Below are positions 1,200 to 60,606 of a DNA stretch of 60,606 nt, piece by piece; position 1 is the stretch's first letter, and each line of letters opens with the position of its first letter. The notes beneath the pieces are model-generated. The model was not told where the DNA came from and searched no databases. It worked only from the letters and a program-made list of their open reading frames with translations. Made by a program: the position numbers and the translations under genes. Origin of the DNA: an uncultured Planctomycetales bacterium (lineage in GTDB: Bacteria; Omnitrophota; Gorgyraeia; Zapsychrales; JANLHA01); assembly GCA_964374105.1 (NCBI GenBank), contig CAYJXI010000009.1, positions 1 to 60,606 on the forward strand, written 5' to 3'.

Positions 1200-2000
1200 A
1201 TGAATTTAGAAAATAAAAAACAAATCGCTATTGTCGCATTGGCCATCGGGTTTGGACTTGTAGCCGCGGTCTTAACCGGCAATCATATACAAGACAGCAT
1301 CAAGAAACAAACAGCTTTATTATCCCAGGAATATGAAAATAAAAAGATTAAACCGCTGATGCAGGAGATTCAAACCCTGCGTGATGAAATGAAAAAGCTG
1401 GCGACCCAACAAGCGACAGTAGCCCAGAAGGTTGGTGATACTAAATCAGAGGCCCCCGCCGCACCCAAATCCACGTTGGCTTTAAGAACTCCCGCAGGAA
1501 AAAGGGCGTATACCATATTGATCGATTCCCTCTCGGCCGTGGGTGGGCTTATCAACCCTGGTGACTATATCGATGTTATTGGCGATCTCAATATGCCGGA
1601 TCCTGTTACCAATAAAACTGAGAACATCATAACCATGTTGTTTCAAAATGTCCAGATTTTAGCGGTGGGAACCAATCTCACCGGCCCGGGAGGGTATGAA
1701 CAACAACAAGCCACAAGGGCTCTGAATATTACGTTTGCCTTGTCTCCCGAAGAGGCTGGACTTTTAACATTTATCCAAAAAAATGGGAGATTGTACTTGA
1801 TTTTAAGAGCACCGGCTGAGACGGAAACCCAAATCATGCAAGTTTCCAACTGGTCGGCCTTGGCGGATTACGTATTTGAAAAACAAGGAACGGAGTTGAT
1901 CATTCCCCGACAGCGCGCCCTTATTGAGCCGGTTCCAGGCGGTGGTAAGGATGAGGTAAAACCTTTTATCGAAATATTCCGCGGCGGGCGAGAGATGTAA
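1200..2000 (+). CDS. cpaB: Flp pilus assembly protein CpaB/RcpC
   Basis: 266 aa. N-terminal TM helix and coiled-coil linker, then a CpaB-type block (GKRAYTILIDSLSAVGGLINPGDYIDVIGDL...QNVQILAVG...ITFALSPEEAGLLTF..GRLYLILR). Confidence 0.75.
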   Translation: MNLENKKQIAIVALAIGFGLVAAVLTGNHIQDSIKKQTALLSQEYENKKIKPLMQEIQTLRDEMKKLATQQATVAQKVGDTKSEAPAAPKSTLALRTPAGKRAYTILIDSLSAVGGLINPGDYIDVIGDLNMPDPVTNKTENIITMLFQNVQILAVGTNLTGPGGYEQQQATRALNITFALSPEEAGLLTFIQKNGRLYLILRAPAETETQIMQVSNWSALADYVFEKQGTELIIPRQRALIEPVPGGGKDEVKPFIEIFRGGREM

Positions 2001-2085
2001 ACCTTTAAATAGATAGATAAGATCAATCCAACATGCTGTGATAAAGAATAATGGCTTATTTGAAGGAGGGATTGTAAGGGCAAGT

Positions 2086-4143
2086 ATGAAAAAAAATATT
2101 GAGAGATGGATTCGAGGCGTTCTGGTTTTTGCCTTTCTGTTATCGATGATATGCTATCCCGGATTTAGTATCGAAATTCAAGAATCTATTGATACCAAAG
2201 AAGAAAGCGATATTTTTATCTATCAAGGGGATTTGGTTTCCTTAAAGGTTTATTCTTTGACACGGATAGCGGTCAGTAATCCGGGAATCGTAGAAATTGC
2301 CAAGGCCGATGTTGATGAGATTCTTTTGATCGGGATGAAGGAAGGCGAGACTTCCATGTATCTGTGGGATGAGTTGGGCAAACGAATGGTCGTTGTACGC
2401 GTGTTTAGTGAGAATTTGGATGTTATTATTGCCCGGATGAAGAAACTATTAGAGAATGCTGAAATTGAAGGGATTGTATTTGAGAAAAACAACTATGAAG
2501 GAAAGGTGGTTATTAAAGGAATCGTTCCACCGGATAAGGGAGACGCTTTTACCCGGATCGCCGAACAGTTTGCGAACAAGTTGCTCAATTATGCCAAGGT
2601 CGAACAAAATAAAGATATGATTCAAATTGACGCGCAATTTACCGAGTTGACCTCAACACTTCAAAAAATCTTGGGGTTTGATTGGAATACGGGAACGGAA
2701 GGGATCACCTTGCCTTACAAGGAGACTTTGCCTACTCTGGATGGAAGTATAAGTGACTTTTTTAAGATCGGAGATTTCCGGCGGACGGCAACTATTATAG
2801 CCACTGTCAACGCCCTTCTTGCTGAGGGGAAAGCGCGCATTCTTTCAAAACCTAGTCTCGTTGTTATCAATGGGGCTGCAGCAAGTTTTATGGTGGGGGG
2901 CGAGATCCCTATCAGGACAACCACCACCAGTGCTGGCGGCAATGTCACGGAAAATATATCTTTTAGATCCTACGGAGTTGATTTGTCAGTCACCCCCACT
3001 ATTTTCGATCAGAACAAAGTTGACCTCTCCTTGAATATAGCAATTAGAGATATTGATGCGGCAAATGCCGCGGCAGGAGTGGTAGCCTTTACCACGAAAA
3101 CAGCAACTACAAAGCTGCTTTTAGAGGACGGCCAAACAATAGTATTAGCTGGATTTATTAAACATCACGTCGGCCAGACTATTCGCCGAATTCCATTTTT
3201 AAGCGATATCCCCGTTGTGGGGGCTTTCTTTCGTCACAAACAGTTTTCACCAAATAATGATCAGGAAGTCGTTGTGACATTAACCCCGCGGATTATAAGA
3301 CAGAAAAAGTCAGGGGAGGCGCAGGGAACGGAAGAAAAAGAGAAGCAGGAAGCAAAATTACAAGAAGAGAAAGAGATGATTGCTAAAGAAGATGCAACAA
3401 AGGAGGAAGGAGTTTCGCAAGCGAAAATGCCCGAGGAGGCAACATGGACAGAATCTAAAGAGGTTGCGGAAAAGAAAAAAGAGATTTCCAAACAGCCCAT
3501 AGAAAAAGCAGCGGAAGTCGAGGGCAAAGAAGTTATATCTGAAGAAGAGGATACGGATTTAGCCCAGTGGGATATCACAAAAGAGGAAGAACAGCTCAGT
3601 GAAGACGAAGAAATGGAAGCCGCCGTTAGAGATGAAGATGTTGCCGAGGAAGAATTAGAACAGGAGGCAAAGGAAATTGCCAAATTGCCTATTGAGGAAG
3701 AGATTGGCAAAGAAGCACCTCCAGGGGAAATGTCGAAAGCGGTTGAAATTACAAAAGAGGAAAAAGATACAACCGCGGTGATTACTTCTTATGTTCAGGC
3801 GATTCAGAAAAAAATTTCTCGGACTATCTCTTTCCCTTACGAAGCCAAACAGAAAGGGTGGGAAGGAACAGTTAAGCTCACCTTAACAATTTTAAGTGAC
3901 GGCACACTGAACGAAGTGACCATTAAAGAGTCATCAGGGCATAAGGTGTTTGACGCCGATGCGATGAATACCGCGCAAATCCTTGCTCCGTTCGATCCGT
4001 TCCCAGTGGAAATGGATTTGGAGGAATTAATTGTAACGATCCCCATCATTTATAGACAAGAGGCTCTTGAGCAAAACAAAGGAGATAATCCGTCAGATAA
4101 CAATTTATCCAGTGCAAAAAAAGAGCAAAAACTTCCGATTTAG
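2086..4143 (+). CDS. cpaC: CpaC/RcpA-type secretin fused to an acidic linker and a TonB C-terminal domain
   Basis: The track ORF starts at GTG 2038, but ATG 2086 gives a clean signal peptide (MKKNIERWIRGVLVFAFLLSMICYPGFS). Pilus N-terminal/BON-like region is followed by a canonical secretin core (ARILSKPSLVVINGAAASFMVGGEIPI...TIVLAGFI...IPFLSDIPVVGAFFR). An E/K-rich segment spans ~3300-3770, then a TonB_C-like block (FPYEAKQKGWEGTVKLTLTILSDGTLNEVTIKESSGHKVFDADAMNT). Confidence 0.85.
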   Translation: MKKNIERWIRGVLVFAFLLSMICYPGFSIEIQESIDTKEESDIFIYQGDLVSLKVYSLTRIAVSNPGIVEIAKADVDEILLIGMKEGETSMYLWDELGKRMVVVRVFSENLDVIIARMKKLLENAEIEGIVFEKNNYEGKVVIKGIVPPDKGDAFTRIAEQFANKLLNYAKVEQNKDMIQIDAQFTELTSTLQKILGFDWNTGTEGITLPYKETLPTLDGSISDFFKIGDFRRTATIIATVNALLAEGKARILSKPSLVVINGAAASFMVGGEIPIRTTTTSAGGNVTENISFRSYGVDLSVTPTIFDQNKVDLSLNIAIRDIDAANAAAGVVAFTTKTATTKLLLEDGQTIVLAGFIKHHVGQTIRRIPFLSDIPVVGAFFRHKQFSPNNDQEVVVTLTPRIIRQKKSGEAQGTEEKEKQEAKLQEEKEMIAKEDATKEEGVSQAKMPEEATWTESKEVAEKKKEISKQPIEKAAEVEGKEVISEEEDTDLAQWDITKEEEQLSEDEEMEAAVRDEDVAEEELEQEAKEIAKLPIEEEIGKEAPPGEMSKAVEITKEEKDTTAVITSYVQAIQKKISRTISFPYEAKQKGWEGTVKLTLTILSDGTLNEVTIKESSGHKVFDADAMNTAQILAPFDPFPVEMDLEELIVTIPIIYRQEALEQNKGDNPSDNNLSSAKKEQKLPI

Positions 4144-4255
4144 ATCCCAATTTTAAGTTTAACGGTGGAATGGATTTAATAATTAATTTGGACTTTCAAA
4201 CTCTTCTAATCTTAAAGAAGTTTCTCCCGCGCGCATACCAAGGTGACTAAAGACG

Positions 4256-6424: not shown

Positions 6425-6435
6425 ATACCACTTCC

Positions 6436-6780
6436 GTGAGGATCCTTAATAAATCCAAGCAGACAATAATCTCCCAACAAACTAAAATTGCCGACTCGAT
6501 TCTTTCAAGACTTATCGGACTTTTGGAGCGATCCTCTATTGATCCCCAGGAGGCCCTTGTCATTACCCATTGTCGGGCCATTCACATGTTTTTTATGCGG
6601 TTTTCTATCGATGTCATTTTTGTGGATAAAAATAACCGAGCCATAGGGCTCATCGCAAGGATCAAACCCTTCCAAATCAGTCCTTACTTTTTTAGATCTC
6701 ATTATGCCATTGAATTGCCCCCCGGGAAAATACAAGAGACAAAGACGACGTTAGGGGATGTAATTGCCTTCGAGCAATAA
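6436..6780 (+). CDS. DUF192 family protein
   Basis: 114 aa, GTG start. Pattern RLIGLL...ALVITHCRAIHMFFMRFSIDVIFVDKNN...AIELPPG...LGDVI fits the DUF192/COG1430 signature as I know it. Confidence 0.6.
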   Translation: MRILNKSKQTIISQQTKIADSILSRLIGLLERSSIDPQEALVITHCRAIHMFFMRFSIDVIFVDKNNRAIGLIARIKPFQISPYFFRSHYAIELPPGKIQETKTTLGDVIAFEQ

Positions 6781-6861
6781 GAATTATCTCATCGTTAGAT
6801 TAGGAATGAGGTAAGTTGTCGGCCAGAGGAATGAATAAAGTCATCGGGAACGGAGAAACAT

Positions 6862-9294: not shown

Positions 9295-9324
9295 TTGACA
9301 ATTTTCTTTTTTTTATGTTATACT
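9295..9324 (+). promoter_or_regulatory. strong sigma70-type promoter with extended -10 upstream of the pilin cluster
   Basis: TTGACA at 9295-9300, 18-nt spacer, TGtTATACT with -10 at 9319-9324. Confidence 0.45.
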
Positions 9325-9868: not shown

Positions 9869-9926
9869 GTGTTTGAACCAAACCCACACCTAGGTATTAG
9901 ACTTTTTTAAGGAGGAGGATTATATA

Positions 9927-57000: not shown

Positions 57001-60000
57001 AGGAGATTGCAAAGACTTTGGATAGTTTGGTTGAAACCAAACAGATTTCTAAGAAAGAACGCGTTCAATTCGAACATCAAATGAAGGATCGGTTGATCGG
57101 CGGGCATTACGGCTTGGGCGGGAAATTTACCGGCCATGGCCGAGAGACAGTTTATATGTTCAAAAACGCCGATGAGGCGGAAGACTTGTTGACCGAAATT
57201 GGGCGAGAGGAAACCGAAAGACCGCAGAGAATAGCGCAAGGCGTGCTGCACGAAACCATCGGTTTGGTCAGCAAGGTCGATGAATATCTTGATGAAAGAG
57301 GCCATGAAGAGAATGTGGCTATCCAGCGGCAATGGAATGAATTATTAGGGAAGGTAGCACCTCAAGAACGAAGACAGGCCGCCTTAAAATCTAAAGAGGC
57401 GAGTGACACGAAAGATTATGCCATTTTAGCTACGCCCAAAGAACTCGTTCCTCAAGTCGCTCCACAACCCGGTATAGAGACCCCAATTCAGTTGACGCCT
57501 GTTTTACCGACTATGCCAACCCTTACCCCCATTCTTCCCTTAGGTCGCAAAACGGAAACTAAGAAGAAAAAGGAAACAGAATTAGCCGTTTCATCTAAAC
57601 CAGTAAGGAGAGATACGGCGATCCTCACCCAGGTGAGACCCGGCATGTTCGATCGATTCAGGTCCCGCCTAACACAGATGGGCGGGATAACCGCGGTGGG
57701 GCTGTTAGGATTTTTTAGCCCGACACCCAAATTGGAGGCGCAGTCACAAGAAAGTGTTGAGTTCTATCAAGCCAGTGATGAACAGCATAAAAGCGATTTT
57801 GGCTTCCCGCAGGCCAAACAAGAGCTTTCCCTTAATCTAGACCAGATGCTTGACAGTTTACGCGCTGACCGCGGCGGGATTGTTCCTGCGGAAATCAATG
57901 CGCCAAACCTTATGAAAATTGCCGGCAGCCTGCCGAAGTCGAGGCCGACGTTTGAAGATTTTACGAAGGCCGTTTCCCGCGAACTGAAAACCAGATATGA
58001 CCGCTACAATAAAGGCCAGATGTCAGCCGCCGAAGTTGAGGAGCTGGCGAAAATGGAAGGCGAGGTCCTGCGCTGGACGTATAAATTTTGGGATCACAAT
58101 GTGGCTTACGATACAGAGGGTGTGCGTACGGGTGCGTGGAAAATCGGCGACCTTCACCATGCCGTCGTTGGTAATCCGAACCTTCCTGGCCGGCCGCGGA
58201 CCGGGGTGTGCGATTCCTGCAGTGACCTCACCACGATGACCTTAAACGAACTCGGGTTCGGTCATAAAAAAGACAGTGTTTCGAAGGTCGGTGTCAAGGT
58301 GAATTTTGCCGGCAGGGATCAGGATGCAGGCGGCGGGCATACGGCCGTGCTGTGGAAGGGCGTCAAAGCAAACGGCATCATTGACTTAACCCAAGGTGTG
58401 AAGGGAGATCTCAATACCGATGTGAAACACAAGGTCCTTTGGGTAAACACACAAAACGGTAAAAGGTTCATTGATTTAAGCCGGGAAGATTTGGCCGATG
58501 TCACCGGTGAGACCTTCGGCAATCTCCTGGAATTCAAGAAGACCTGGGTGGCAGCCAATAAATTGATTGAGAATCACAACGCGACCATTGCCTTGGTTAA
58601 CAGCGGCCGCACGCCGTTAGATCTCATTATGCCATCCCTGGAAGACATTGCCTATAAGACCGGTGTCTTAAAAGGATCGCCGGCCACGGCCCATCGACCC
58701 GAATTGAGGAAAAATTTAGAGCAGTTAAGTATTGGGGTTGCCCAAAGCATGGCGACCGCCAGATACAACGACGGTGTCAAGACCCACGAGCGGCTGGTCA
58801 ACAAACTGAACGAGGCCAATCAGCTGGCTAATGACGGAAAATTCAACGAGGCCATCAAGCTTTACGATTCTGTCAAGAAAGACGCTCAGGATCATGCGGC
58901 CCGTTTGGAAAAATCGCCGCTGGTGAATATCAAAAAGGCGGATATGGACGGACGGAGGATTATCAGCGAAATTCACAAGGCCGCCGAGGTCGCCGAGCAG
59001 AACCGCCAGGCGGCGGAACATAATAAAACTATAGGCGCTCGGGGCGTTAAGACCGCGGCGGTCAGCGGCTCTGTCCAGGGTGCCATTGAGGCCATGAACA
59101 GATTTAATGAGAGGTTAAATCTGGCCAACCGCGAGTTTAAGAAAGGCAATTACGAAGAGGCCAGACGGCAATACGATTCCATAAAGAAAGAAATTTCGAA
59201 AACCGTCGAGTCGTTCAATGCCTCAGCGTTGGCCAAATTAACCGAAAGCGAATCGAATCTGCAGGATGAACAGGGCCGAGCAGTGAGCGGTAAACAACTG
59301 ATTGGCAACATCGATCAGTTGCGCAAAGTTGCCGAGAGCAATCTTAAGGCTACCGAGCAGAATATTCATACGGGTCAGTATAACAATCTGGTGAAGCAGT
59401 TTAATGACTATGCCAATGCCCGGAATCTTAATGAGGTTTTGAGGAACATCGGCAATGTCAGCCGTGAGGCCGACCGTTTCGCTAAGGAGCCGGCGGTTGA
59501 AACCAAAATGCGTGACGCCTTCAAAGAATTGAAGAAGCAGGCCGACAAGGTGATTCAGCAAAAAACAGAATCCGGCGCGCTCATGCCGTCGGCAAAAGCG
59601 GAGGTTCAGTTGGCCATGGCTCCGATCAAGGAGTTGGCGCCGGCCAAGGATTCCGTAGGGCTTACCGCTATCTCCTTGGCGCAGACGCCAAGTTCACTTG
59701 TGCTAGCCCGGGCCAAGGGCATGACTTCATTGCCAGAGGAGAGGTATGCGGAATTTGATAAGATCAATGACACCTTGCTTATGAAACAGATTTCCCTAGA
59801 ATCTCTGAAAATGAAGTTATCCAACATCCCAGCGGCCGAACGTACCGAGCAGGAGAGGATTCAAAAGCAGATTGCATCGGTCGAAACCGAGATTAGGATA
59901 TTGGAAGAATTGAATCAGAAGATTTCAGAGACCCTGGATACTTTGGTTGAAACCAAACAGATTTCTAAGAAAGAACGCGTTCAATTCGAACATCAAATGA

Positions 60001-60606
60001 AGGATCGGTTGATCGGCGGGCATTACGGCTTGGGCGGGAAATTTACCGGCCATGGCCGAGAGACAGTTTATATGTTCAAAAACGCCGATGAGGCGGAAGA
60101 CTTGTTGACCGAAATTGGGCGAGAGGAAACCGAAAGACCGCAGAGAATAGCGCAAGGCGTGCTGCACGAAACCATCGGTTTGGTCAGCAAGGTCGATGAA
60201 TATCTTGATGAAAGAGGCCATGAAGAGAATGTGGCTATCCAGCGGCAATGGAATGAATTATTAGGGAAGGTAGCACCTCAAGAACGAAGACAGGCCGCCT
60301 TAAAATCTAAAGAGGCGAGTGACACGAAAGATTATGCCATTTTAGCTACGCCCAAAGAACTCGTTCCTCAAGTCGCTCCACAACCCGGTATAGAGACCCC
60401 AATTCAGTTGACGCCTGTTTTACCGACTATGCCAACCCTTACCCCCATTCTTCCCTTAGGTCGCAAAACGGAAACTAAGAAGAAAAAGGATGCGGCCATT
60501 TTAACCCAAGCCAGACCTATTTCCATTACAAAATCACAAGATCGATATGTAGCTTATGATTCCAATGAAATCAGCGAGGCCCAAGTTGAGGACATCATGG
60601 CGGTTG
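24075..60606 (+). CDS. giant protein, 5' partial: at least 12,177 codons with no stop in the window
   Basis: In-frame TAG at 24060-62 and TGA at 24066-68, then ATG 24075. I read no in-frame stop to 60605. The ORF track has no + ORF in this frame after 24 kb but has 13 short ones in the other two + frames. Frame checks at 24582, 28722, 40551, 49383, 54330, 58209 and 60543 all agree. TAA, TAG and TGA all terminate neighbouring genes. Confidence 0.9.
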   Translation, partial: MEEKERLDIKEESSNFNLNSINNKDSNLNTFYTFALPEEKPIPFKSHFKSWIRTVALFVVLVFVPEQISWAFNYDSTVIWGFKNDQSATPSAPTEQVVTAKVTESIRDLLIQLAYREKAEIDLILSNPQSAKRENFQPHINFRSKLDVTEGIIKQVNQWLSDPNIHPLNCGVYALRDLLRLSGIQIPLEELSVSTLAVDLLHEIVRPGEEKLKTSLFAIDKVVQAYGLPFQAAKIKPQDITKLKTPFIANYDSEHFVLVGRMDEQNIHFTDIGRHMSLPRDDFVKNFSGFVLAPELDKAGIEYELITDSQKAFVWGNKWVDNSDDLPGLIDAGDVALSVGITVLTIVIAAVSCIFAACAGLVLLPLSIGASALGSTLGQVCQLKWGCNEDQAMLLSIGVAVGLTLGASILWSWGSSTAPTVAQVATDVGQQVGKDAPQQAAQQTSNALQILLTALKDAAIAVKDAIVDTVKQVALAIKDAVVQIYTDIVNFVTNIIEFFRSIGTFLADLFTGQLFTATTTATTTTTSSLSSLGSASVVVLKDVLKLLGGMQETRPIHFSLSELLFAIPKTMAVTATYAAIKVYLGKWLRKQLGDDVIAEVFNSLITSIAADVAIQAEAYFLDRLTLSENMAFSEFMGVGEKRSVREAKKQGDAARAQAKAQKLSLDQQQAAYDAAYTQTLRELDPELIAKDAADAKVVAEAKKLKTDDKKLTTDQAKSIWTAEYKKVLNSTADPFVVDLRAGLANTLGNAFTRTLGAFAGMTARYIAMDLLEEDADPNSLLSQAIGDLFSALTIATYSAMTNHFSYEAPVDVKKEKEGEHKEEYYYERVTVDPNTKQKTTTKIYVNPDDGIIYARSPADKTVPITPENVQFVFQERKGFWETLLVTATPRIANAAMAWGLDEYENKNVKEECDDNGENCQKDELHRAGIRGLFLLSAAAIEGVANVAMYYWNRDTGIDGQKITVENPHDMGLFSVFVDEGIGPLTHFVESLALDFYSFNGTAPWAGGKVGFENTAQFVAFADQLGASTGYTHEALDQMRAARKQIQKRNQENSLAGNGPTTEEDRKLEEEQAEAEYFLAVDNILKSGRISFILNQINSNLASGYVYQDVYKQGGLFPTLTRSFEVLVSNFINDPTILNTFGFVYRPWRGVETDTKIVDLKGIRAPGDIGSRYSIASKTTAFFPGIFEMAGVADRGRDYFIINDNGTAVENPNQIRWTQKDVKDLGIGNGRILTKDGDSIPLMSPYAADIVDENIAKVETGFKFFDRLPSIYDFHANVGRKGIGFFKVSREGGKEGEYQNEWQVSGNVYQKDQQPAFLVGFLADFLLKGKEKGNLTFAQPALSPDEMYLFAQFAYEDGFLVEEGDGQLIISDPGTLDSLIVMDLATGKSEITIDANSDLGFEIRNSKLGSKINAISQTLFQGKTDLHKQDFLMAFFAEHLQKEKDGTLKSEDGQWAFGSINLSPEEIDIIRTAAQAEGYQIDETENKLIVYEDIDDLKEYFIVNKTTGKMELTIPLESQLGLAIRNEAIGEIAKAVTTAQAGSPTQPAQAFHIALLSDFARKEGSNLKKDSNGNIQFEAIEIDREEMDALVQSAIEEGYIVEERDGQVTISDPNTADIMLAWNKTTGGKVLPLIDKGSVLGQAIEEYATNSKGLYRTQFTKAHTDVIEGWDGHDDFVLKVVSERTIGKDIPLTEKDGKLIPAAPPRYFMSQYIGKDALLKDEALQKAFKELRQEALGNEKIGEFITKMAEAVSFGMDVHPAELAQLLKEVGLLTPEEADNVLAAIATISKLRKEQRRADSMATNLTDQKKDNVEKLMAIAKKVKEGTLNPPEEMEFLGQAFGTTSSTLPSIMNDVTTENVTPKELANQLTAMGSTLPPAMQRIFQAIDEMKNKKEIRRQEQAEQAIAQRSEEVAGFLAGFVGLAKDPANLNMDQLEALLGVMTSRDYDLQLVMATLNQKLGIAQALPTTTLASASISSSGLSIDQGWQIAGMGDLGLPQSKDIPHFEKKVIDTAVTHRETKKDFEEGLKFLSGKDVTTSISAYAFTDKNIDELEKDERGGYILDNKALAFVYQGFGQIIKGEKNLSTNFAFGASAEKPIRLDENKNLIDEGSGVMIRSIGKGDKIDFLSLYLGKFAEGINNLEPVSDKTSAVESVLVKAQAAGQAETKAQKATAFHIAMLSDFAKREGNNLQRDSNGNIQFEEFEIGSNEMDALAQSAIDEGYIVEERDGRVTISDPNTVDIMLALDKTTGKMELTIPLDSQLGNAIRKEAVGEVAKAITTAQAGSPAQPAKAFHIALLSDFAKREGNNLKKDSNENVKFEEFELGNEEMDALAQSAIDEGYIVEEKNGQLIISDRTTMDIMVALNKTTGKIELTIPLDSQLGLAIRNEAIGETAKTEPAVKSEPALAKAEVKEKKIKAEEISQALDAFGIISPHVRAVVAAKLAEEEASVPVVAALAKLEAKEKKPVISSRSQPKPPEVPEGRDYVAKIFYTSEEDSQVPGQKNITAGRMYSFFRNKDIKKETHALVMEGTSGLDKDGNLTFSARVNGEYINFPPPGQNGEKGGEGKKEGSVTQREVLAKGVEFLNSPLGWYAFVQDEEKGTFEIHPGKIWIDDFIARLNQGVFVYGDKWGYHPLTENAEIRNTIVKANEGGRIEFFLRGKRGEIKYKGHVYTIDKMEVEGVKGEKAVLLALQNADLQYIEKTLLDSKVDPGQASTITWEIQEARQKNPGAFTSLNDLKAALEASGSCSAAEAVCSASGAVAGQFEQLVSAIEQKVSVEGYLEGAVRFANPIEEIGHIDDLFATKIQSPQWEKLWGDADFTKQPIMTQTFYNQEGAPIGERTIAYKVDLKDDLTIEGLKNGVVYTGNEEAGSKLILNERGLLEAIFTNPITKEDDVRQIKLAQGINAFSLSLDSPTVSILFAAPSLGQTTETAKTPKQEGSGQPPEYYDNVLSLAWTKPVGTTTSYARTDEKGNLLKGEKPMNVYEGDIAGGSVTKDFYARDSNGNVRYENGKPVIATVEGQGDRRLTFYADPFQFGFGSEKYPARMSQSMKTFFIENEQASINYGPGAAVEKDAEGKFKAEHIEEIKNDGRLLHVNTLITKGSPIFGFDKERDPGFYTPLSEFTTYLGNGILTIVDGNISILNGSETMIVMGSGAEFESAAYERFNLHSGFEPQVLAMAEKEEDPIKLTQTRVGYHMDGKQKYSTIIKSEYDEEITKRDAELVIAATGGLIEEKSDNYTKPNIGEKDKDRADVEVKLSIKSDGDTPQDIAKILADVGGKVTPYWDKNGDIASSFIKVEFGSAVDERNMFTVKMNINQVARIMDLIEKNPETAKDPRKLKAAFESVGIPVAETKANKEELERLGNKLASSKGDSKRGEQAIEESQKGIQARQPNTPPVGESAVITFLKKLGFIYTATDFRQLGSRDQSSKKAEDTQAPETAPPSTTSQNSQLTLAAVLRAAVEYFGQRVQEQEFARGVGERMVLEDPPVQEIFNLGRERSPLQQLEDLASPRRHLGLFDSAQAHGRITLEFLSDEELAKNEAGLRPNTGLGLWDSGPMIERGQDLFGRQNRSGFINSFLVLESQDEGELVPVALTGDQAIIGAREAAKQGGLNGFFVGQRPDGTLALRVIGQPAGILPEKESAEGSDLARAFAVPESTFLQIDLNALLKDEGQLKLAGTSSSPTFSREGNILGVEKIGEPPPPEPTAVQLAMKDAPEPSLVFALGQFNPVTEQMEFTGRVSHAPGGPNSYYGLAADNQSLVTSVPTQLSFQDEKFTLDLVGGLYRTDGEGAENRFVGIKIDEQGRKIAINNQFMIVDTGKNDDLGITYDPSYKGLVELAANRAMFDTRQSLTAEEMANVLKTEAKKGKALPVESFHEFFKRLVQSQAYHIWNELKKNPEAKRRMDTNQWGVIWEEIRSNEMYGRGLYGIDIEKSKELADPLAGPKDKGGYDLQGNQELLDLVNKAAMHIVEREALAQKHYRDGSTIRGGYKNEYGAPKPEFDPSYYPLGRDESVAMGTSLPDEKRSYIDKSLKLENAQELATHFGEEKAKERMLAHPELANLSPAEKEELKKLSAAQIALKFPKIWEGEGVPQMVLVDEQGLPIRASMKDGVVERDHYGNIRQDQDGAVVLVTKTIKESGEVGYTTNDGKAVDLKMVKELMFYHPEVVLNGARTIEVYQDMAFRGKMILPDDDHDGVAYWGPLSMTFASKKDDPGLADAEVLPTRFILVDQKGAPIRKDGRYVDLVKTAKPSEEVIFKDQEGDEINPSFVKELPSRIFSQLLYGRPVGSEEEDQWNYKATIGKQIGINLETGRWYISLVDGQIALPADYQTHNKILNINSDHPVFLASAIGIFRKEPKAGPIPADYLSKQEEEKEKEKTKKEKITEVSQTTRIEDVYSDGSVLARLGKDKAIKEGISSLILESAGWGKYASTLGDSWTTIVAQPGVSQKSRRYLIEEAGGGDGQEYEFKTTNNSFIIMPTLPVLVRFINRLRQGEVPGYDVETETGRTGVAFKEAFEKGTPVSGFKDKRNRSGIVLKATTKNGVEYRLVDPDILLGAGEKWIPSFRYKSGVRRMVYTKASVWEERPVDQSLTKDSQEVWNSDDVIIEVVGKDRTSEFKWIDDDDVRVRVVTATGLPGTMLVDYFESTADDLKGSVDDKTVSLVEERMDENGNIKMVVIGRKIRDVDDIQLVPGVVELYGGKDQNGKDLVKIARGVDLAQVIEGAAGTVEQWKNPENISQFWKFWEADGFGGGDIVVRVPRLNPYKLDGSYVKKRNEKGEETDDIFYDYYRIDFSHVRNKIDGEGAKIVSLENFHEGRGPIASESTYSGFFDSFDGDRNEDNVVVSRFKEGELLMRLIDYETTHGLGHLVTDEIKDPETGRVLVARGVLNKDFGLKDAVLMGEKLDLTSTIIGSVDAVLAPVTVVLAVTGVGNAINVGINAGKTLLVEGGKVALRQAVMAGVRAGASSLFAFARSTYLSNQALAIFAATETFNYMQTGEIDPAMTVRNFLLTGALSGASRLSSFLPKTAGTQVAGKTLNVFGAKIPVPSLGSLAFNKAVSIGLPNAVSVASGNGFLSPETNLALVIVSFAGGIGGNFASAARAVGPGLTRVGYMTLSEALLFGQVSAVTGTTLRAFQRQDSAMDTFSDFGKGFALGAVAGGAMGIGGGIVSESAIYSKMKAYFDKHTTQGLLASLTARGLGGGVGLPILDATLKTFEASPVPNKEKSFPEQMKDSFSTENIITGIFLGLASRGLSAQRLQKASTATKLAYGAGAGAAANVLHGFIREYKDAKQKQKDIDYSGEQIFLDAISGAALGMLTVSYLASPKNFIGKGKTAEHSLKNFYENPEALFMSSAQGAAKWVWVSPAFELGGAIFKGQAVRVSKAVFGEESMYAGEDVPWLAVDKVDPETGEVVKGKLDSLMENELGISDLSRLMEGAIQGPQSGLWMAPLFGVIQAQGLNEGAAKTFSQRVLASLQMPRWLEKVAESRFGKTVLVKLETVKPKSEAAKPAEAGKPAEAGKPAEAGSGSSGEVAKAGTEGKAPTGPGPNDITVGRVLANTYRDVFYMPTVITLIHEGMQFANEVSDKIVGRKAKKNKEGSDQSKEEEESDGSLFTLSQSSYLGWLGFLSLPSYHRGGVGAEDGDVTRIPPRPPTFGKEGEGETGASPMETKANRVESLVDRALGQTENYRNQYNQATAEAEALETRANDLEIKLKSLLAKRNAQDQGQPPAEVAGEETDVLARLERHKPDDNGSSVPRQARGEEELASLPGSNNGNGAGLEKEGVFLDPNLDGGLANRVPTLPIEGTQGSGSGNKLQQEIDGLRQQAAAKRKEADATLQSVEHHATRAKNLAEQELGLRETIALGTGDGMKSATQGLPEAKKESQAGSDSSGSEAELASSKGSSKVGPAREGQVDKAVVSRPKEEGVSSPKAQEKLTAESGETAKTRDISSEPAKPRDGPAVQGTPQRTTPKTAREIELEKIIQEADIFLAQANEALASSPYTRSRKELKPLTQKAQKGVKRVEEMISDIDSQLSSLEGQLTEAQARRDKSQRELDREQKDLELAEKLLSEAERDIEAEPGVSKARERVTKAETKADYAADNLEKAKAQKQKSEAELAALKTEDPKRSPKKARAPNESEVGAKVLEARKKTENVEDTKEKLERDEDKGHDARIELAKERAMAGERLGLDAAKEIVAEQTALRDLAQQIREDDHTKVKGLEAQIDALKAKKPHLEKALGIAQAKVEKRRSIVTKEARLRRAKEAGDRAEATASRIVSELTVREGSELKIKDGLSAEELDLLKISLGRLKERAQTAETIAKDISETQRSLEATEREAADLSAELENLGTPTTAAAQRRIAEISKRLAEISSTRSELKAKREGFLEKAKQVDLETVDLDSLIKLAVAERSEGQREIERTDREIEDSRQEETRAQQLVDQAQADLDQATTALAAKQRIASQSDLRGKPAPQELAKRKGQGFDTGYESPRAKRKARDASGKTEEQELASKVLKSGKAERNAEKSEAKKKRTQEKFDIEAAQEEAAARRADLETAKLLLAKARVRTAQKEKSLRLAEAKGEKLDEEILSFGTERDSKSTQKAGYQGQAAEARKVPTKEHLTRLAQEAEQRADELLVKEFRDGKTKATQEAYEEVAAAASRLSDRYAKSEVELSGQRRSLAQDIEASEHTLNRLSSELFRLERDKKQSEQKVAELRELLASAKQSGKELESSPLAKKLRQARGAQQKASDRYQETQEDPTKNKAVHQKLRTQQRAEEKSRRLQEKFDREKDETQDLEQLIREEIQTESRKIEELAKVITRLEKRVDSDSRLAVELKVQREGLDQVESDLKLASKEAYQKVSELARQKATEVSDGKTPIETTPTLTRPPESPLELLAKKYRAESGESAPEQVKPGSKKEAAGERVARSTKAIQDSARQEIEQLLPQVESRVKDTREILARKSSQVSKEQYERLEGDLGQRIVKEAERTISELVELNEFGGIKSIKVEDGDLQGALRVIKAYKILEEKASDKGMIKANIQRAENRAKELKEKITSAEAQKADRGKGLEQAKEQRINAQEQLRAEQEEYARLNDIDNDPGVKKAKAKFEKQDVASERAESNYERLRTNYQTAQKKYEEALAQQEKAPSADHADKAYRAKRNMEEAFGKMEKAEAAAKKLEVPYQQANLDYQKAKDIARAKAAEQKQYVQLAKQELAQTEKTITRRQRHVEKLGKIKEGYAERLLGEQEQIALNESTPTKQKYQWLSRQAKEKAVEIAEGVVKALAEVEVVDGVTTIKNIRPTNREGFKRLARAADFLTRHAKSEELIQQEIQFRKRVVSAKEKDQADFKEESNQGQPANSSSYRRLAQAALDLARGKTTPEREALKEARTRREDLLAQENEGVGEIDRQLSDHKVELNEARTRKEGLKGEVEKAQREIAVAESLNQDAQRQLELALRNVVLDEGLRRAMGNAANQRAASQKAGENYEFAKKNDREAKKKYEEAIKERDEAIQNDSPNSHQKSLEADNAKRNMEEASGNLKRVEASAERVAESYQAGELELAKARDTAERKFKIADLRQEKKTAESMLEKATKNYEAKASEFNEVNSEIISLEKSIGDLAFRRGLKKIEIANVEKDISTLRKIPTKEEYSSKAKDAARTADERLIQEAWQGRERSSAQEYDEVAKVADKLYREAPTQETLDQQWQSARQDYEVERHSLRKVRGEIEKTQSQLEEAIRKREQLESDVEYAKGEVKGVESTKQGKGLARAEVNLRNQQKALAKALSKGTPGETQGQAVSSKERAVRRATEKVKSKKPALEKETTEREEFLELARVELKEARAKEKELRQNLSRMQATEKQIESDLSRANERVKAIESTLSRAELALISKEAKQKAREMEQGRVSSPQEKKEGEPILQKVFRTELELQEGFEVAKPSQAEPGTRRHEAQVRSAKVKGAMQKGAKEALRQLVPEVERGVQESKDSLAKKEKEISKEGYTGIKRTTLKEMSRSARRELSEESGSQSRIESDISQRGEVVLGERAKRAEARRKEMNILGKELGQVSRQVAEVDTRLATLRSQLKSGVAEGRTLDSSEKIHMRDTLIPRLEKQRSRLAEKFDTAKKSLDRLNVQLRAQEVADQILAKALATLPKPRVDKTPIKPQAPPKEFTFSDVLDRVIAKKDDRVLDDFLGRSLGSERQDILEELWSRARLETATEGSIISEALKKLGLDYKLNGLEPFYKQAISEDSAAGRLAAKRELYLRSQSATSRTERLAAHWALSDIDHILAERARSQSDELAASTRDKAVKTQTPPRSRQKSSRPSTGTSSPDGTKPSIVRKVIDKYKAIKQEREEVKRAKRVATLAKELFDNDGKETPAFRDETSVEIKSAAFEMYRTLQDTKTDIENFARAQGEKPFDLKTEDVDWLEVYEMARNAYGQFKKGEKPFIVISKETGGGKTVLIQALALMLARDPFMRDRSVVIVVPESVKTEILTDSTKSMLKGRIRDVKNKNESLSIERGLNIATHAEAQRLRHENKIDKSMIELSDETDRQNRIPVLVVSSGRDSEQIMDRARAGDRKAKEIVRNSEVDRSQTELLALISEKLVEQEGDIHKVVAFDGSRRKNPWDFRKDKDDSGSSARGRVERLYREIVDSWEGKELGKETAQLLGEWQKDASFNERFNTAFEGFRNAGGEVLEFSGKTMEKKLGALARYLYNRATPDYKFDPEGDMLFYMLADSGHSQKGTIPGDSEYARMLVIAVTWDKLGVGKRGETLKNYLTARRTKTMNPVSDVDVHSAFGLVIGFSGTAESMELAGRAQGARFLKPKTERNNVDFMELRLDDRPVDVRDPVKSIAEGIKEHLFREDLRDPSRGEDGREYNNARLTIATTDHREAFDRLVVEAEANGGRLKLDGKEKRVAIVTEYKDSGEIDAKQLEEAKDAVKRLQEDKDEELIVLFLGLSGGSNIAALADRLVETAGSVAKARESVSKANVLVFSARATADMGQAGGRVNIAGDRESQRMNAHKVEGIIFINADGKVETPQRSRALDAVASGDKNQIRLVALEILDSIQNRNLISKVYTVAKTSPELTKETVRDVVHDFMKKSTDRRVMDIMDRSGRFELSVALDSGKGYETYKAKKYDENGKVKEVEAVSITATTGPIFFGGGVRLQPGQTYNYQDGFIYATVESEKGKLPLSAVAANLQDKKPAMQPVAVFRTYYDEKKQGFVNGIFDIQLDTEGKKYFARPNEKVEFVQEDGKKVSVAVDNVQYLDQEKKNENYLKVTQGSKELGIRAGDQILSLNNRIVVTRQQGPQRLIKKILAKDSSGSFKLSNLKVSNLEVSGPKTENPDGTVGITEETFRALKHQEKIVSQMLAATSELPQLHNSGKIKASVEEMLSQAQSLLGYREGWQVTRKGDWQIEGGRIVEHPYLEIAHQDDIQGERTQLGKLQKVAEKKYGTKFIFDPFMEHHGTAGEADKEKRELLLGTHAFVTLATPIKTMQGSGVAWHEVSHMTDNYREAQGTPNIGGAARIRVVNRGKRLPFYKEDDIGGYHDDFAIGEIKTHEITGAARLIDMRDAVRLGDEKGADSFAYGALDYLERGAKIAFNTQFATEFALRSVARQDRTSGEWVLDRDKSHNIEIQGNKAVIKVLDDDVEEFIEIDQPLPQNLSNDSDKKEWIVKQLDLTAKMAKTRGSAMKLKAALAKSHRDDSLISDAIKNSRRELKDILGEAVKEDGRFTAIEPSRSEAELVLSEVLSTARPVEEKNQVTYISPITGRGIVVDSDSRKIVKFISQEPALTKFLDFVVDEKDKSEAIERVQATDRSPEGRAFKSAYQKAQLLEEPEILDRVQLFALSDNDLQREVTFFVDQYKSKVTDVGSQALQQELSADRRFVSHSRKLKSHPEIYIAKADKVASRISDFLESVGGHDLVVADTSEKMSWVVLFEALTLKNPTMSDDRKIAQLRDWYQELESSEGIDIDEDIDIEEPSYASVDRAMLSLGRSKRIEMPKTSALPRIRSQKSQSSQTDERSRLYDIAEGINRGSREDLASESSFSTPQVKAMSKIVERLTKTIPGFKPELGQTALGYATLESAERAAEGKGDILLWVSPQGRGKTTIGVPSAMEAAKRENIPIVYSASDEANAAKIVIEAERLLGPGAVDRVQYERGRPVLQELKKGRVVVMTIREQQEFQSRGKLSNVFGLLDEAHRTTSAAPLVEGPARGIGRDMLSSERGRIEVKRLKFKEQLEHNIALMDTVREVAGEIGGKDPWIIVKNQEDQSGNPIGEAFESRDVAVDIYGNVLKDNNGNAIRPKQIILERFAQRPESKAYEFTETEMNALLNSGVRMLMSEMNAPRVAYKEGRDGKIEDYAPIDIDTGEAKWGQIFGDPTGGLNPDGRMAIASQGKKASLDLYIDNVLSKTTKETTGIDVIKGMSGSILATGTSDLAMDMIAKRKVQTNPQIKLGEMAAKLILDDGNSPNSRAIAAVDRTLAHINSREGRDTNLVIIDSSIPTDREYHRKQLEGLKGYTFVEKTGEELANFVKDFNEGKVKGKVILSTQVYDGISFEGPGKIHMILANATSENNRNQAFTRGGSTPELAKRRTPMTAEQIMNMNDPQFDHKTRTRLALRKLELKQAEKEAGVNPQTGEIVSFDPAKIERVKTARVNLQAELEGVAHQLASRAQTPSLRQVSRLSQKAEGERYSEQEIMQRIEEYETAQLTSRAKWAMESTGQKRVDISFENNKGYETFVLDATQKSGVRPISISATASLPLNYGLVLQSGQTLDLDQHLIYEDDKDGNRSQEPTAIVQYTPVVENNVPRMETKVLPLTNGRYFTKDIQQGFKSDLALEKVTYEIGTKKQDKPKLTHYLVRATPQIRQEFGFTEAQDQEGLVKVPKEHFERAIALNENKNLRNQKFSEILGKIQGSVIADLMSAERYQKASQRETEIRKAVELALSEVSEVDKLTLSEMGSSEKEFLKRALDSKDDKAEVVMFDVNKDELRQEIAKTLDSLVETKQISKKERVQFEHQMKDRLIGGHYGLGGKFTGHGRETVYMFKNADEAEDLLTEIGREETERPQRIAQGVLHETIGLVSKVDEYLDERGHEENVAIQRQWNELLGKVAPQERRQAALKSKEASDTKDYAILATPKELVPQVAPQPGIETPIQLTPVLPTMPTLTPILPLGRKTETKKKKETELAVSSKPVRRDTAILTQVRPGMFDRFRSRLTQMGGITAVGLLGFFSPTPKLEAQSQESVEFYQASDEQHKSDFGFPQAKQELSLNLDQMLDSLRADRGGIVPAEINAPNLMKIAGSLPKSRPTFEDFTKAVSRELKTRYDRYNKGQMSAAEVEELAKMEGEVLRWTYKFWDHNVAYDTEGVRTGAWKIGDLHHAVVGNPNLPGRPRTGVCDSCSDLTTMTLNELGFGHKKDSVSKVGVKVNFAGRDQDAGGGHTAVLWKGVKANGIIDLTQGVKGDLNTDVKHKVLWVNTQNGKRFIDLSREDLADVTGETFGNLLEFKKTWVAANKLIENHNATIALVNSGRTPLDLIMPSLEDIAYKTGVLKGSPATAHRPELRKNLEQLSIGVAQSMATARYNDGVKTHERLVNKLNEANQLANDGKFNEAIKLYDSVKKDAQDHAARLEKSPLVNIKKADMDGRRIISEIHKAAEVAEQNRQAAEHNKTIGARGVKTAAVSGSVQGAIEAMNRFNERLNLANREFKKGNYEEARRQYDSIKKEISKTVESFNASALAKLTESESNLQDEQGRAVSGKQLIGNIDQLRKVAESNLKATEQNIHTGQYNNLVKQFNDYANARNLNEVLRNIGNVSREADRFAKEPAVETKMRDAFKELKKQADKVIQQKTESGALMPSAKAEVQLAMAPIKELAPAKDSVGLTAISLAQTPSSLVLARAKGMTSLPEERYAEFDKINDTLLMKQISLESLKMKLSNIPAAERTEQERIQKQIASVETEIRILEELNQKISETLDTLVETKQISKKERVQFEHQMKDRLIGGHYGLGGKFTGHGRETVYMFKNADEAEDLLTEIGREETERPQRIAQGVLHETIGLVSKVDEYLDERGHEENVAIQRQWNELLGKVAPQERRQAALKSKEASDTKDYAILATPKELVPQVAPQPGIETPIQLTPVLPTMPTLTPILPLGRKTETKKKKDAAILTQARPISITKSQDRYVAYDSNEISEAQVEDIMAV
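24555..24965 (+). other. C39-like papain-fold cysteine peptidase domain of the giant protein
   Basis: NCGVYALRDLLRLSGIQIPLEEL (Cys codon 24582-84)...AYGLPFQAAKIKPQDITKLKTPFIANYDSEHFVLVG (His codon 24837-39)...IHFTDIG...RDDFVKNFSGFVLAP. Order and spacing match the C39 bacteriocin-processing peptidase pattern. Confidence 0.6.
25070..25320 (+). other. membrane-spanning cluster 1 of the giant protein
   Basis: GDVALSVGITVLTIVIAAVSCIFAACAGLVLLPLSIGASALG and AMLLSIGVAVGLTLGASILWSW. There is also an earlier TM helix, WIRTVALFVVLVFVP, at ~24225-24290. Confidence 0.6.
28026..29030 (+). repeat. three tandem copies of a ~112-120-aa module in the giant protein
   Basis: Units start at ~28026, 28362 and 28722. 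Shared pattern F..A.LSDFA.KEG.NL......F......EEMD....A..EGY.VEE.DG...ISDP...D.......TTGK.ELTIPL.SQLG.AIRNEAIGE.AKA.TTAQAGSP. Confidence 0.7.
30594..31260 (+). repeat. two further tandem copies of the same module
   Basis: Units start at 30594 and 30951 (357 nt apart). High nucleotide and protein identity to the unit at 28722 (FHIA(L/M)LSDFAKREGNNL...EMDALAQSAIDEGYIVEE). Confidence 0.75.
38795..40200 (+). other. membrane-spanning cluster 2 of the giant protein (Gly/Ala-rich polytopic region)
   Basis: Roughly 8-10 hydrophobic Gly/Ala-rich segments, e.g. VLAPVTVVLAVTGVGNAINVG, ALVIVSFAGGIGGNFA, FALGAVAGGAMGIGGGIV, IITGIFLGLASRGL, ISGAALGMLTVSYLA. Confidence 0.55.
40593..40649 (+). repeat. (KPAEAG)x3 microrepeat linker
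   Basis: AKPAEAGKPAEAGKPAEAG, encoded with different synonymous codons in each unit. Confidence 0.8.
41075..48480 (+). other. very long coiled-coil/charged helical region of the giant protein
   Basis: Almost continuous E/K/R/A/Q/L-rich heptad-like sequence, interrupted by an S/G/P-rich stretch at ~41230-42000. Contains diverged ~364-370-aa super-repeats. Confidence 0.65.
49340..51080 (+). other. SecA-DEAD-like P-loop ATPase module 1
   Basis: KETGGGKT (GGGKT at 49383-49397), then SVVIVVPESV, LSDETDRQNRIPVLVVSSG, VIGFSGTAESMEL (50430-50441) and MGQAGGRVNIAGD. The order parallels SecA motifs TGEGKT / VVTVNDYLA / DEVDSILIDEARTPLIISG / GMTGTA / RGRAGRQGDPG. Confidence 0.6.
52530..52544 (+). other. 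HExxH motif (HEVSH)
   Basis: GVAWHEVSHMTDNY. Motif-level evidence only. Confidence 0.25.
54290..55800 (+). other. SecA-DEAD-like / DEAH P-loop ATPase module 2
   Basis: SPQGRGKTT (54330-54353), IPIVYSASDEANA, LLDEAHRTTSAAPLVEG (DEAH at 54615-54626), ILATGTSDLAMDM and QAFTRGG. Confidence 0.6.
57021..57574 (+). repeat. copy 1 of a 554-bp near-identical in-frame direct repeat
   Basis: Identical by eye to 59937-60490 except G57025 versus C59941. The offset is 2916 nt (972 codons). Confidence 0.85.
58190..58400 (+). other. transglutaminase-like (papain-fold) Cys-His-Asp core
   Basis: GRPRTGVCDSCSDLTTMTLNELGF (Cys 58209-11)...AGGGHTAVLWKG (His 58338-40)...NGIIDLTQG (Asp 58383-85). Spacing fits transglutaminase-core cysteine peptidases. 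Confidence 0.4.
59937..60490 (+). repeat. copy 2 of the 554-bp direct repeat
   Basis: See copy 1. After the repeat the protein stays homologous (DTAILTQVRP versus DAAILTQARP) following an ~11-aa indel. Confidence 0.85.

Follow-up and report, generated by a model that had tools for sequence, protein, structure and literature searches.

In Candidatus Omnitrophota, a gene for a giant protein lies directly downstream of a Tad/Flp-type pilus locus, and this order is conserved far beyond the genome considered here. The stretch of DNA under study, contig CAYJXI010000009.1 (‘the window’, meaning the whole contig of 60,606 bp), carries the pilus locus at 185-21254 and, behind it, an open reading frame (ORF) of at least 12,177 amino acids. 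The full order, peptidyl-prolyl isomerase (PPIase)–RcpC–secretin/TonB_C–TadZ/CpaF–DUF192–helix-turn-helix (HTH) protein–seven Flp pilins–four Cys-rich pilin-like proteins–TadB–TadC–giant protein, is kept across dozens of Omnitrophota species. The most probable reading, held with a confidence somewhat above even, is that a conserved Tad (type IVc)-like machine and a membrane-anchored giant protein are coupled by co-regulation rather than by co-transcription.

The window is an instance of an Omnitrophota locus that has already been described, and the hypothesis of coupling is the published one. In giant-gene loci of the phylum, West-Roberts et al. (2023; 10.1101/2023.11.21.568195) report an upstream locus of >10 genes with gspD, gspE, gspF and rcpC homologues, a Rotamase_2 PPIase and many small class-III-signal genes, and a C39 (or S8) peptidase near the giant N-terminus, close to a signal or anchor sequence; the role that they propose for the system is prey adhesion and cell-wall attack. 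Nielsen and Lui (2026; 10.64898/2026.06.07.730766) find secretion/pilus genes beside 13/14 of the largest giants, with IS5 and other transposases in the flanks of giant genes. Seymour et al. (PMC10066038) count both Tad complexes and giant ORFs among the markers of symbiosis in the phylum. A preliminary description of the window, made from its letters, had pointed to the first of these preprints, which does contain what was attributed to it. It had also offered the coupling of pilus and giant protein as its own hypothesis; West-Roberts et al. already propose the joint role, and Nielsen and Lui confirm the locus in 13/14 giants.

Pilus locus and giant gene as conserved neighbours

The genes of the pilus locus, the DNA that separates it from the giant gene and the giant gene itself are as follows.

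185-1168, + strand: PpiC/SurA-like PPIase (Rotamase_2; Pfam PF13145, E 8e-19), first gene of the conserved locus
1200-2000, + strand: RcpC/CpaB (Pfam PF16976, E 6e-22)
2038-4143, + strand: secretin of RcpA/CpaC type with an E/K-rich linker and a C-terminal TonB_C domain (Secretin E 1e-43)
4256-6424, + strand: ParA/MinD-like domain (TadZ/CpaE type) fused to a T2SSE ATPase (CpaF/TadA type) (Pfam)
6436-6780, + strand: DUF192 protein (Pfam PF02643, E 3e-15), at the same position in L057, L059 and L067-L072
6862-7101, - strand: ORF of 79 amino acids, double zinc ribbon with four CxxC pairs, between the DUF192 and HTH genes
7452-9251, + strand: protein of 599 amino acids that combines a transposase-type HTH at its N-terminus with a Tn5/IS4-like core; it is a candidate regulator of the locus
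9701-12532, + strand: seven small Flp/class-III-signal pilin genes, 55-134 amino acids (from translations)
12622-19346, + strand: four larger pilin-like proteins of 537, 130, 1385 and 147 amino acids with hydrophobic pilin-type N-termini
19456-20310, + strand: TadB (T2SSF, Pfam PF00482)
20373-21254, + strand: TadC (T2SSF, Pfam PF00482); TadB and TadC are adjacent platform paralogues (E 5e-16 and 2e-14 for the pair)
~21375-21797, + strand: decayed Y1/REP-associated tyrosine transposase (RAYT) gene, frameshifted and truncated (NCBIfam REP_Tyr_transpos E 4e-7, below cutoff)
21861-23308, - strand: intact IS5-family element of 1,448 bp, transposase gene at 21885-23198
24075-60605, + strand: giant ORF of at least 12,177 amino acids, cut by the contig end (stop-free frame 24069-60605, first ATG at 24075)
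24228-25310, + strand: conserved N-terminal module of the giant protein with a transmembrane (TM) helix, a C39 peptidase and two or three further TM helices (Pfam, alignment, model, hydropathy)

Relatives, given here by their L numbers, came from a scan of GTDB, limited to a single genome for each species, in which an alignment of the conserved N-terminal portion of the giant protein served as query; it gave 60 loci. Synteny was read from tblastn of the window proteins against these loci and judged on the 53 with >3.5 kb of upstream DNA. In 51/53, Cys537, Cys1385 and Cys147 (large pilin-like proteins named by their lengths), TadB and TadC lie upstream of the giant ORF on the same strand and without an insertion sequence (IS), a conservation far above chance. 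The gap between TadC and the giant ORF in relatives has a median of 887 bp (range 280-8,212), and the ORF exceeds the 10-kb flank (>3,600 amino acids) in nearly all of them. The upstream half of the locus, from the PPIase to the pilins, is collinear in L057, L059 and L067-L072; the PPIase stands upstream of RcpC in unchanged order in L069, where the ParA-ATPase fusion is 67% identical over 720 amino acids. The large pilin-like genes are kept in order upstream of TadB in ~50 loci, and each small-pilin paralogue has a same-order orthologue in L067, L069 and L070. Identity to relatives is 37-69% for TadB and 38-77% for TadC, with values of >55% in the closer ones.

The lineage follows from the same comparisons. 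The N-terminal 1,200 amino acids of the giant protein retrieved 10 homologues, all with a C39 domain; six of the 10 carry a source name, which is Candidatus Omnitrophota in all six, and T2SSF genes adjoin the C39 gene on the contigs of four of the 10. The closest homologues and the 60 related loci belong to metagenome-assembled genomes (MAGs) of Omnitrophota, a few of which bear other labels. The contig holds no tRNA and no ribosomal or marker genes, and no Rfam family matches at gathering score across the whole window, 23300-24200 giving chance-level matches. G+C ranges from 34 to 51% in 2-kb windows (~45% overall), and GC skew is positive along the entire contig. A longer source contig, sought through two encoded proteins, was not found; the search returned Logan contigs of 17.5 and 11 kb.

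Record titles are a separate matter. Public MAGs with this Omnitrophota-type locus are often titled ‘uncultured Planctomycetales bacterium’ (with one ‘Deltaproteobacteria’ and one ‘Planctomycetales’); such titles are found for L009-L014, L016, L022, L028, L033, L036, L038, L041, L042, L046, L048, L050, L055, L057 and L062. The Planctomycetales- and Deltaproteobacteria-titled records that carry the locus are probably mislabelled.

From the end of tadC to the ATG of the giant ORF the window counts 2,821 bp, made up of the RAYT remnant, the intact IS5 element and ~770 bp of AT-rich DNA. The IS belongs to the IS5 family by its IS5-group DDE transposase (NCBIfam transpos_IS5_1, NF033578, 498 bits versus a cutoff of 275), its terminal inverted repeats (17 nt, 21861-21877 and 23292-23308, 94% complementary) and its short target duplication, the direct repeat TAACTA at 21857-21862 and 23307-23312. 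No such element occurs at the equivalent position in relatives. Without the IS and the transposase remnant the gap shrinks to ~0.9 kb, the usual size; therefore, the IS is a secondary simple insertion upstream of the giant-gene control region. Both the IS5 element and the decayed Y1 gene are inserted between tadC and that region, and no gene or control region is disrupted. As reconstructed, the IS5 target includes a small palindrome, CCCTAGTT...AACTAGGG, beside the decayed tyrosine transposase gene at 21375-21797.

Misassembly at the IS was considered and rejected. An independent assembly, the 17.5-kb Logan contig ERR3478686_1327794, covers window positions 11096-28613 with three mismatches and runs from the pilins through TadB/TadC, the IS and the gap into the giant gene, thus spanning the join; a weak Y1_Tnp match to the transposase remnant is found on it as well. 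The IS has its direct repeat, and the two parts are adjacent in relatives that have no IS. The preliminary description had placed the tad genes and the giant gene on the + strand, ~2.8 kb apart, with mobile-element debris and a regulatory region between them, and had recognized Omnitrophota traits; layout, gap content and lineage are all borne out. It had staked its case on conservation of the adjacency in related genomes, on the lineage and on a sound join at the IS, and has been upheld on the three points.

Predicted control elements of the pilin operon and the giant gene

The short elements before the pilin operon, the HTH gene and the giant gene, and around the giant start codon, are as follows.

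7433-7438, + strand: TGGACA box before the HTH gene, 19 nt upstream of its ATG
9295-9324, + strand: pilin-operon promoter, TTGACA, 18 nt, TGTTATACT (sequence read directly)
9295-9487 with the promoter, + strand: pilin-operon leader, AAGCCACGGAG at 9362-9372, hairpin and T-run at 9443-9487 (sequence, fold)
23431-23471, - strand: two distal CAGATTGGACATT-type boxes, ~370-400 nt upstream of the giant promoter
23805-23828, + strand: giant-gene promoter, TTGTTC, 17 nt, TGTTATACT (cross-species alignment)
23805-23972 with the promoter, + strand: giant-gene leader of ~135 nt, GCCGCGGAA box at ~23893, hairpin and T8 (terminator scan, fold)
23991-24101, + strand: three proximal CAGATTGGACATT-type boxes at 23991, 24026 and 24094, the third inside codons 7-9 of the giant ORF

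By its predicted signals, the giant gene is transcribed separately from the pilus genes: a conserved promoter of the extended -10 type is followed by a leader of 100-450 nt that usually contains a terminator-like hairpin. In the cross-species alignment ATGYTATACTT, the extended -10, is invariant, and 17 nt separate it from a TTG-type -35 and an A/T-rich tract upstream. The promoter motif lies within 700 nt of the ORF in 56/60 loci, versus ~0.19 expected per locus. Because the giant gene has its own conserved promoter, co-orientation with the tad genes does not mean co-transcription. A hairpin followed by a T-run occurs in the leaders of 38 of the 60 giant loci; in the window it occupies 23936-23972 and has a 12-pair stem with T8.

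The pilin operon is preceded by the same kind of promoter and leader, in a layout repeated in L057, L059, L061 and L067. A shared AAAGCCACGG box (AAAGCCACGGR) lies 45-95 nt past the -10 in 22 giant leaders. The window, L057, L061 and L067 have it in their pilin leaders too, and L059 has a variant of it there; the chance probability of an exact 10-mer at this position is ~1e-4 per leader. In many leader terminators, the 5' arm and the loop consist of another conserved box, GGYTRCCGAA. This common design of promoter, box and hairpin suggests that pilin operon and giant gene may share a conditional-termination control.

Several observations on the leaders stand apart from this. In L059 the common promoter and leader design is found at 2800-2955 and 9765-9900. 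The terminator arm CGCGGTAG bears some resemblance to the core of the E. coli ops element, GGCGGTAG. In L004/L044, L026 and L051 the conserved promoter stands only ~15 nt before the giant ATG, and the giant mRNA of these loci would be nearly leaderless and without a leader terminator, as read from the sequence. The first codons of the L026 gene, MKSAAEQN, resemble a short leader ORF of the window, MKIAAENL, at 23885-23926. Two other forms of control were considered and dropped. A structured, riboswitch-like leader is not seen, since the leaders are not unusually stable (no significant gain over shuffled sequences) and RNAalifold finds the terminator stem only. An invertible promoter between inverted boxes is rejected, the promoter being in the opposite orientation in no locus.

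The hexamer TGGACA marks the start of the giant gene. Over 62 loci, it occurs at 3.98 per kb between -700 and +120 of the giant ORF start versus 0.60 elsewhere, a 6.7-fold enrichment, and it is by far the most enriched of the 180 permutations of the hexamer in the same regions. Beyond the hexamer, the logo extends to CAGATTGGACATT. Five of the 11 matches to TGGACAWT in the window fall within 23431-24101. Boxes lie in the corresponding regions of ~50 related loci, with a distal group on the - strand upstream of the promoter, which most relatives have, and a proximal + strand group around the start codon. The box at +13 of the giant ORF recurs in >20 relatives, which explains the odd conservation of ‘RLD’ in the first codons. 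Boxes also precede the HTH gene in 8/9 loci, within ~100 nt of the ATG (60 nt in most), and in two of these loci, L070 and L071, they form a palindrome, TGTCCAgagTGGACA.

The HTH gene is single-copy and syntenic, located between the DUF192 gene and the pilins in nine loci. In relatives the protein has 350-650 amino acids (for example at L057 1365-2756, L059 1558-2613, L067 704-2500 and L069 10001-11815). All nine sequences read start with M..YKL and 8/9 with MGVIYKL. The 599-residue ORF of the window has no Pfam match; among 43 members of the family 10 match HTH_Tnp_Tc3_2. There are 71 homologues, almost all labelled Omnitrophota, and those with a source name are all hypothetical proteins; a metagenome scan with the protein gave six loci only. 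Its structural model has a predicted local distance difference test (pLDDT) score of 81.9, and among PDB folds Tn5 transposase matches it best (E 3e-3, probability 0.77). With Tn5/IS4 DDE transposases it shares the N-terminal transposase-type HTH, this fold, a weak IS4 profile match and a Y..RW...E-like signature. Unlike them, it is encoded by a single-copy gene at one syntenic position with no terminal inverted repeats around it, and a family-invariant Asn442 seems to stand where an acidic catalytic residue would be expected. On these grounds, the HTH protein looks like a domesticated, DNA-binding IS4/Tn5-type transposase rather than an active one. An active IS with TGGACA terminal repeats is rejected, the gene being single-copy and syntenic and the boxes at the HTH gene having no consistent orientation.

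The HTH protein probably binds the CAGATTGGACATT boxes, which are putative operators, and it would thereby regulate its own gene and control the giant gene. A more detailed circuit is tentative, and we judge it somewhat more likely to be wrong than right: the HTH protein would gate the giant gene through the CAGATTGGACATT boxes, and a common antitermination step at both AAAGCCACGG leaders would license the pilin operon and the giant gene. RfaH and LoaP control long operons, and by analogy with them such a step might license the ~12-kb pilin operon and the >36-kb gene. The promoter, leader and terminator, the AAAGCCACGG box, the HTH gene and the CAGATTGGACATT boxes appear to be unreported, since neither giant-gene preprint (10.1101/2023.11.21.568195; 10.64898/2026.06.07.730766) mentions a promoter, a terminator or a helix-turn-helix, and their lists of flanking genes are without an HTH gene.

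Giant protein and pilus machine

The conserved part of the giant protein is, on sequence grounds, its first ~330 amino acids, a predicted membrane anchor plus a papain-like C39 peptidase whose Cys/His/Asp set is intact. The module is laid out as a TM helix at amino acids 52-72 with the motif PEQISWAFNYNP, the C39 domain at ~160-300 and further TM helices at 332-412. Peptidase_C39 (PF03412) is the sole Pfam match above the curated cut-off in the protein (amino acids 170-294, E 5e-9, 36.5 bits versus 22). In the alignment with the ten homologues, the conserved block is sharply bounded to amino acids 44-330 and ends in AFVWG.KW; similarity is gone after ~340. Cys170 (in HPLNCGV), His255 (in EHFV) and Asp271 are invariant in the 11 sequences. 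The Gln that normally lies six residues before the catalytic Cys of C39 peptidases is not conserved here. The AlphaFold model reaches pLDDT 80-93 over amino acids 90-310, and its Foldseek matches include the C39 domain of PCAT1 (E 9e-7), LahT150 (TM-score 0.70) and the C39-like domain of HlyB.

The domain thus resembles the C39 peptidases of PCAT/AMS exporters (PCAT1, LahT150) and the inactive C39-like domain of HlyB in its fold (Foldseek E 9e-7 to 7e-4); it resembles isolated C39 domains with TM-scores of 0.70-0.73, has the Cys/His/Asp residues conserved and adjoins TM helices. In contrast to the exporters, it has no ABC transporter attached (neither ABC_tran nor ABC_membrane is found by Pfam in the giant protein), it opens a giant protein and has TM helices on either side, and no double-glycine substrate is evident, none with such a leader having been identified. 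Its place near the N-terminus and close to an anchor sequence is that of the published loci, and a group of 24 proteins with the PF03412 architecture is reported among long proteins, of which 80% are sequence singletons (10.64898/2026.06.07.730766). Comparison with the locus of West-Roberts et al. gives the same Rotamase_2 PPIase, rcpC, gspD-like, gspE-like and two gspF-like genes and class-III-signal genes, followed by a C39 giant; the difference is that the giant is here cut at 12,177 amino acids.

The class to which such giants belong is described as having >30,000 amino acids, numerous TM regions and downstream PilZ and sugar-import genes; ‘most’ giants, not all, have SecA domains, which in Dockerin-type giants come after TM anchors near the C-terminus (10.1101/2023.11.21.568195). 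The size class, the SecA-like domains and the downstream genes are invisible here because the giant is truncated. In amino acids 1-12,177 neither SecA_DEAD nor SecA preprotein-binding matches in Pfam at E <= 0.01, and a PDB sequence search of the protein gave no match, with no SecA at E <= 0.1. Kyte-Doolittle hydropathy of the incomplete protein gives about three strong segments (amino acids 54-72, 346-364 and 392-410) and four to six weaker ones (at 596-614, 4909-5322 and 8932). The preliminary description had seen all of the published traits in the window; pilus locus and lineage are indeed there, whereas SecA-DEAD is undetected and few TM segments, about 3 to 7 hydrophobic ones, are detected in the 12,177 amino acids.

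As judged from two stretches of the body that were searched, the remainder of the protein diverges beyond recognition: amino acids 4400-5600 have no homologue in 5.8e9 proteins and 1290-2400 none in 1.84e9 cluster representatives. The body is rich in A, E, K and L, 40% charged at amino acids 6000-8000, and contains 11 Cys in 12,177 residues. A single tandem DNA repeat was found in the gene, and three sets of internal duplications in the protein. The recent one relates amino acids 10927-11198 to 11901-12157 (window ~56853-57668 and ~59775-60545) with 76-90% identity. Of the older two, one relates 1300-1700 to 2100-2400 in units of ~120 amino acids with a sub-threshold CBM58 match, and the other relates 6500-7000 to 7500-8000, E/A/K-rich and 40% charged. 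The LiM giant of Velamenicoccus archaeovorus (39,678 amino acids, 42 TM helices) shares, as summarised in PMC10066038, the phylum, a genome with an expressed Tad locus and a proposed role in prey contact; it differs in that the body stretches searched here gave no sequence similarity to it.

Some relatives encode the C39 module on its own, as a protein of 570-1,870 amino acids (L002 10001-22907; L005 349-3945; L003, L014 and L042). The separate gene has further long same-strand ORFs behind it (L002) or is convergent with the tad genes (L005 349-3945). Such split genes could reflect true gene splitting or assembly frameshift errors.

All genes of the pilus locus are on the + strand except the zinc-ribbon ORF, which together with the IS5 transposase gene makes up the - strand genes of the window. 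Known Tad/Flp pili (Aggregatibacter, Caulobacter Cpa and Bdellovibrio-like predators) have the same Flp-type pilins, CpaF/TadA, TadB/TadC, RcpA/CpaC, RcpC/CpaB and TadZ/CpaE-like ParA. The locus differs from them in five ways: the TadZ-ATPase fusion; the TonB_C domain on the secretin; a pilin set of seven Flp paralogues and four large, Cys-rich pilin-like proteins, the longest with 1,385 amino acids; TadV, TadD, RcpB and Pfam-recognisable TadE/F/G, which were not found in the locus; and the additional PPIase, DUF192 and HTH genes. In the fusion protein, AAA_31/CbiA/ParA covers amino acids 3-241 and T2SSE amino acids 368-651 (E 1e-58); the secretin also matches T2SS-T3SS_pil_N (E 6e-10), and its TonB_C lies at amino acids 598-673 (E 1e-15, Pfam). 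These two unusual fusions are both kept in relatives. The sole match of the zinc-ribbon ORF is a chance-level one to the N-terminus of TcaA.

The small pilins are recognized by the Flp-type prepilin motif, a short basic leader and a G/xxxxEY-like site followed by a hydrophobic helix, which is present in seven ORFs; N-termini are of the G/A-Q-x-x-x-E-Y type, as in KKGQSTLEY, NRGQNLIEY and MKGQSTLEY. Pfam gives Flp_Fap on one ORF (E 1e-4, below cut-off) and Class_IIIsignal on two, above cut-off only for 9927-10130. The four large pilin-like proteins match no Pfam or NCBIfam profile, those of TadE and TadG included, and are presumed to be minor or tip subunits. Their Cys content of 2.3-6.1% agrees with the Cys-rich expanded pilin set of the preliminary description, a label that does not extend to the seven small pilins, which have no Cys at all. 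An A24 prepilin peptidase (TadV/CpaA) has no Pfam or NCBIfam match among the window ORFs scanned, namely the + strand genes of 185-21254, the giant ORF, the IS5 transposase, the Y1 remnant and the zinc-ribbon ORF; the TadV gene may lie elsewhere in the genome.

Competing readings and their meaning

Under co-regulation, the Tad-like machine would build a surface fibre of Flp pilins, on which the disulfide-rich large subunits, as tip or minor pilins, would contact prey or host. N-terminal helices would anchor the giant protein in the inner membrane. The module conserved at its N-terminus would act with or beside the machine, in docking and/or proteolytic processing, and the fast-evolving giant body would be the lineage-specific adhesive or envelope-attacking part. 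The two units would be coordinated by the HTH protein at CAGATTGGACATT boxes, placed before its own gene and bracketing the giant promoter and start codon. With a common AAAGCCACGG box followed by a terminator, the pilin and giant leaders would offer a common leader-termination step.

A number of observations weigh against this picture. A few relatives depart from the order: L005 is inverted, with a C39 protein of 1,198 amino acids, and L054 lacks tad genes on the upstream side. Only about one-third of the giant leaders have the AAAGCCACGG box, and a leader as a whole is no more stable than shuffles (z -1.5 to -2.2). No adhesin, carbohydrate-binding or lytic domain is apparent in the 12,177 amino acids, the only hint being the sub-threshold CBM58 match (E 0.002). 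Either two or three helices may follow the C39 domain, so that most of the protein could lie in the cytoplasm, a location that would make its reading as a surface effector less convincing. As the prepilin peptidase was not found in the window, pilus assembly is incompletely accounted for by the contig. The functional link between machine and giant protein is drawn from synteny and motifs, and the pairing of HTH protein and boxes from their co-occurrence.

An unlikely alternative makes the giant protein, or pieces cut by its own C39 domain, the cargo of the machine, with the pilins as a pseudopilus piston that pushes through the secretin. The machine is indeed like a type II secretion system (secretin, GspE-like, GspF-like), the giant gene always follows it, and a nearly Cys-free (11 in 12,177), A/E/K-rich body fits an elongated exported polypeptide, which C39 may cut into pieces as West-Roberts et al. 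suggest. Yet the usual cargo of type II secretion is a folded periplasmic protein of ordinary size, and hydropathy identifies no cleavable signal peptide, the segment at amino acids 52-72, ~50 residues in, reading as a TM anchor. GG occurs just once in the first 600 amino acids, and seven Flp pilins with large Cys-rich subunits suit an external fibre more than a piston. Less probable still is a reading in which the TM and C39 module is a part of the pilus machine, for example a leader peptidase for Flp pilins that replaces TadV, and the giant body an add-on. It would account for the A24 prepilin peptidase not found in the locus. Conservation in the giant protein is confined to the module, which is 30-55% identical across relatives versus 37-77% for TadB/TadC (41-51% among the ten closest homologues of the module); its catalytic Cys/His/Asp are invariant, and it is also found in proteins of 900-1,200 amino acids beside the same tad genes (P0001, P0006). 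But C39 peptidases cut after Gly-Gly, whereas the pilins have K/R/N-G|Q sites and no double-glycine leader; under the positive-inside rule the C39 domain would face the periplasm, whereas prepilins are cut on the cytoplasmic side; and a TadV gene elsewhere in the genome would leave no such vacancy.

Least credible, to the point of being nearly dismissed, is an adjacency that is artefact or accident, that is, a chimeric join at the IS or a chance neighbourhood. The IS5 element and the transposase remnant do sit exactly between the two parts, and mobile elements are common beside giant genes (10.64898/2026.06.07.730766). Against this, the junction is crossed by an independent assembly, the IS has intact ends and a direct repeat of target-site type, the adjacency exists without the IS in 51/53 related loci, and the two parts have cis-elements in common. 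Collectively, co-regulation of a Tad-like machine and a membrane-anchored giant protein is the reading preferred here.

The giants of Omnitrophota are among the longest proteins known and are thought to serve predation or parasitism on microbes. In gene content the contig adds nothing new. What is gained is a measure of how strict the pairing of pilus locus and giant gene is, together with the finding that conservation in the giant protein is limited to the N-terminal TM and C39 module. A promoter, a leader terminator, two short boxes and a candidate DNA-binding protein further provide concrete control elements for the switching on of an expensive gene, and through these regulatory elements the functional coupling of pilus and giant protein becomes a testable question.

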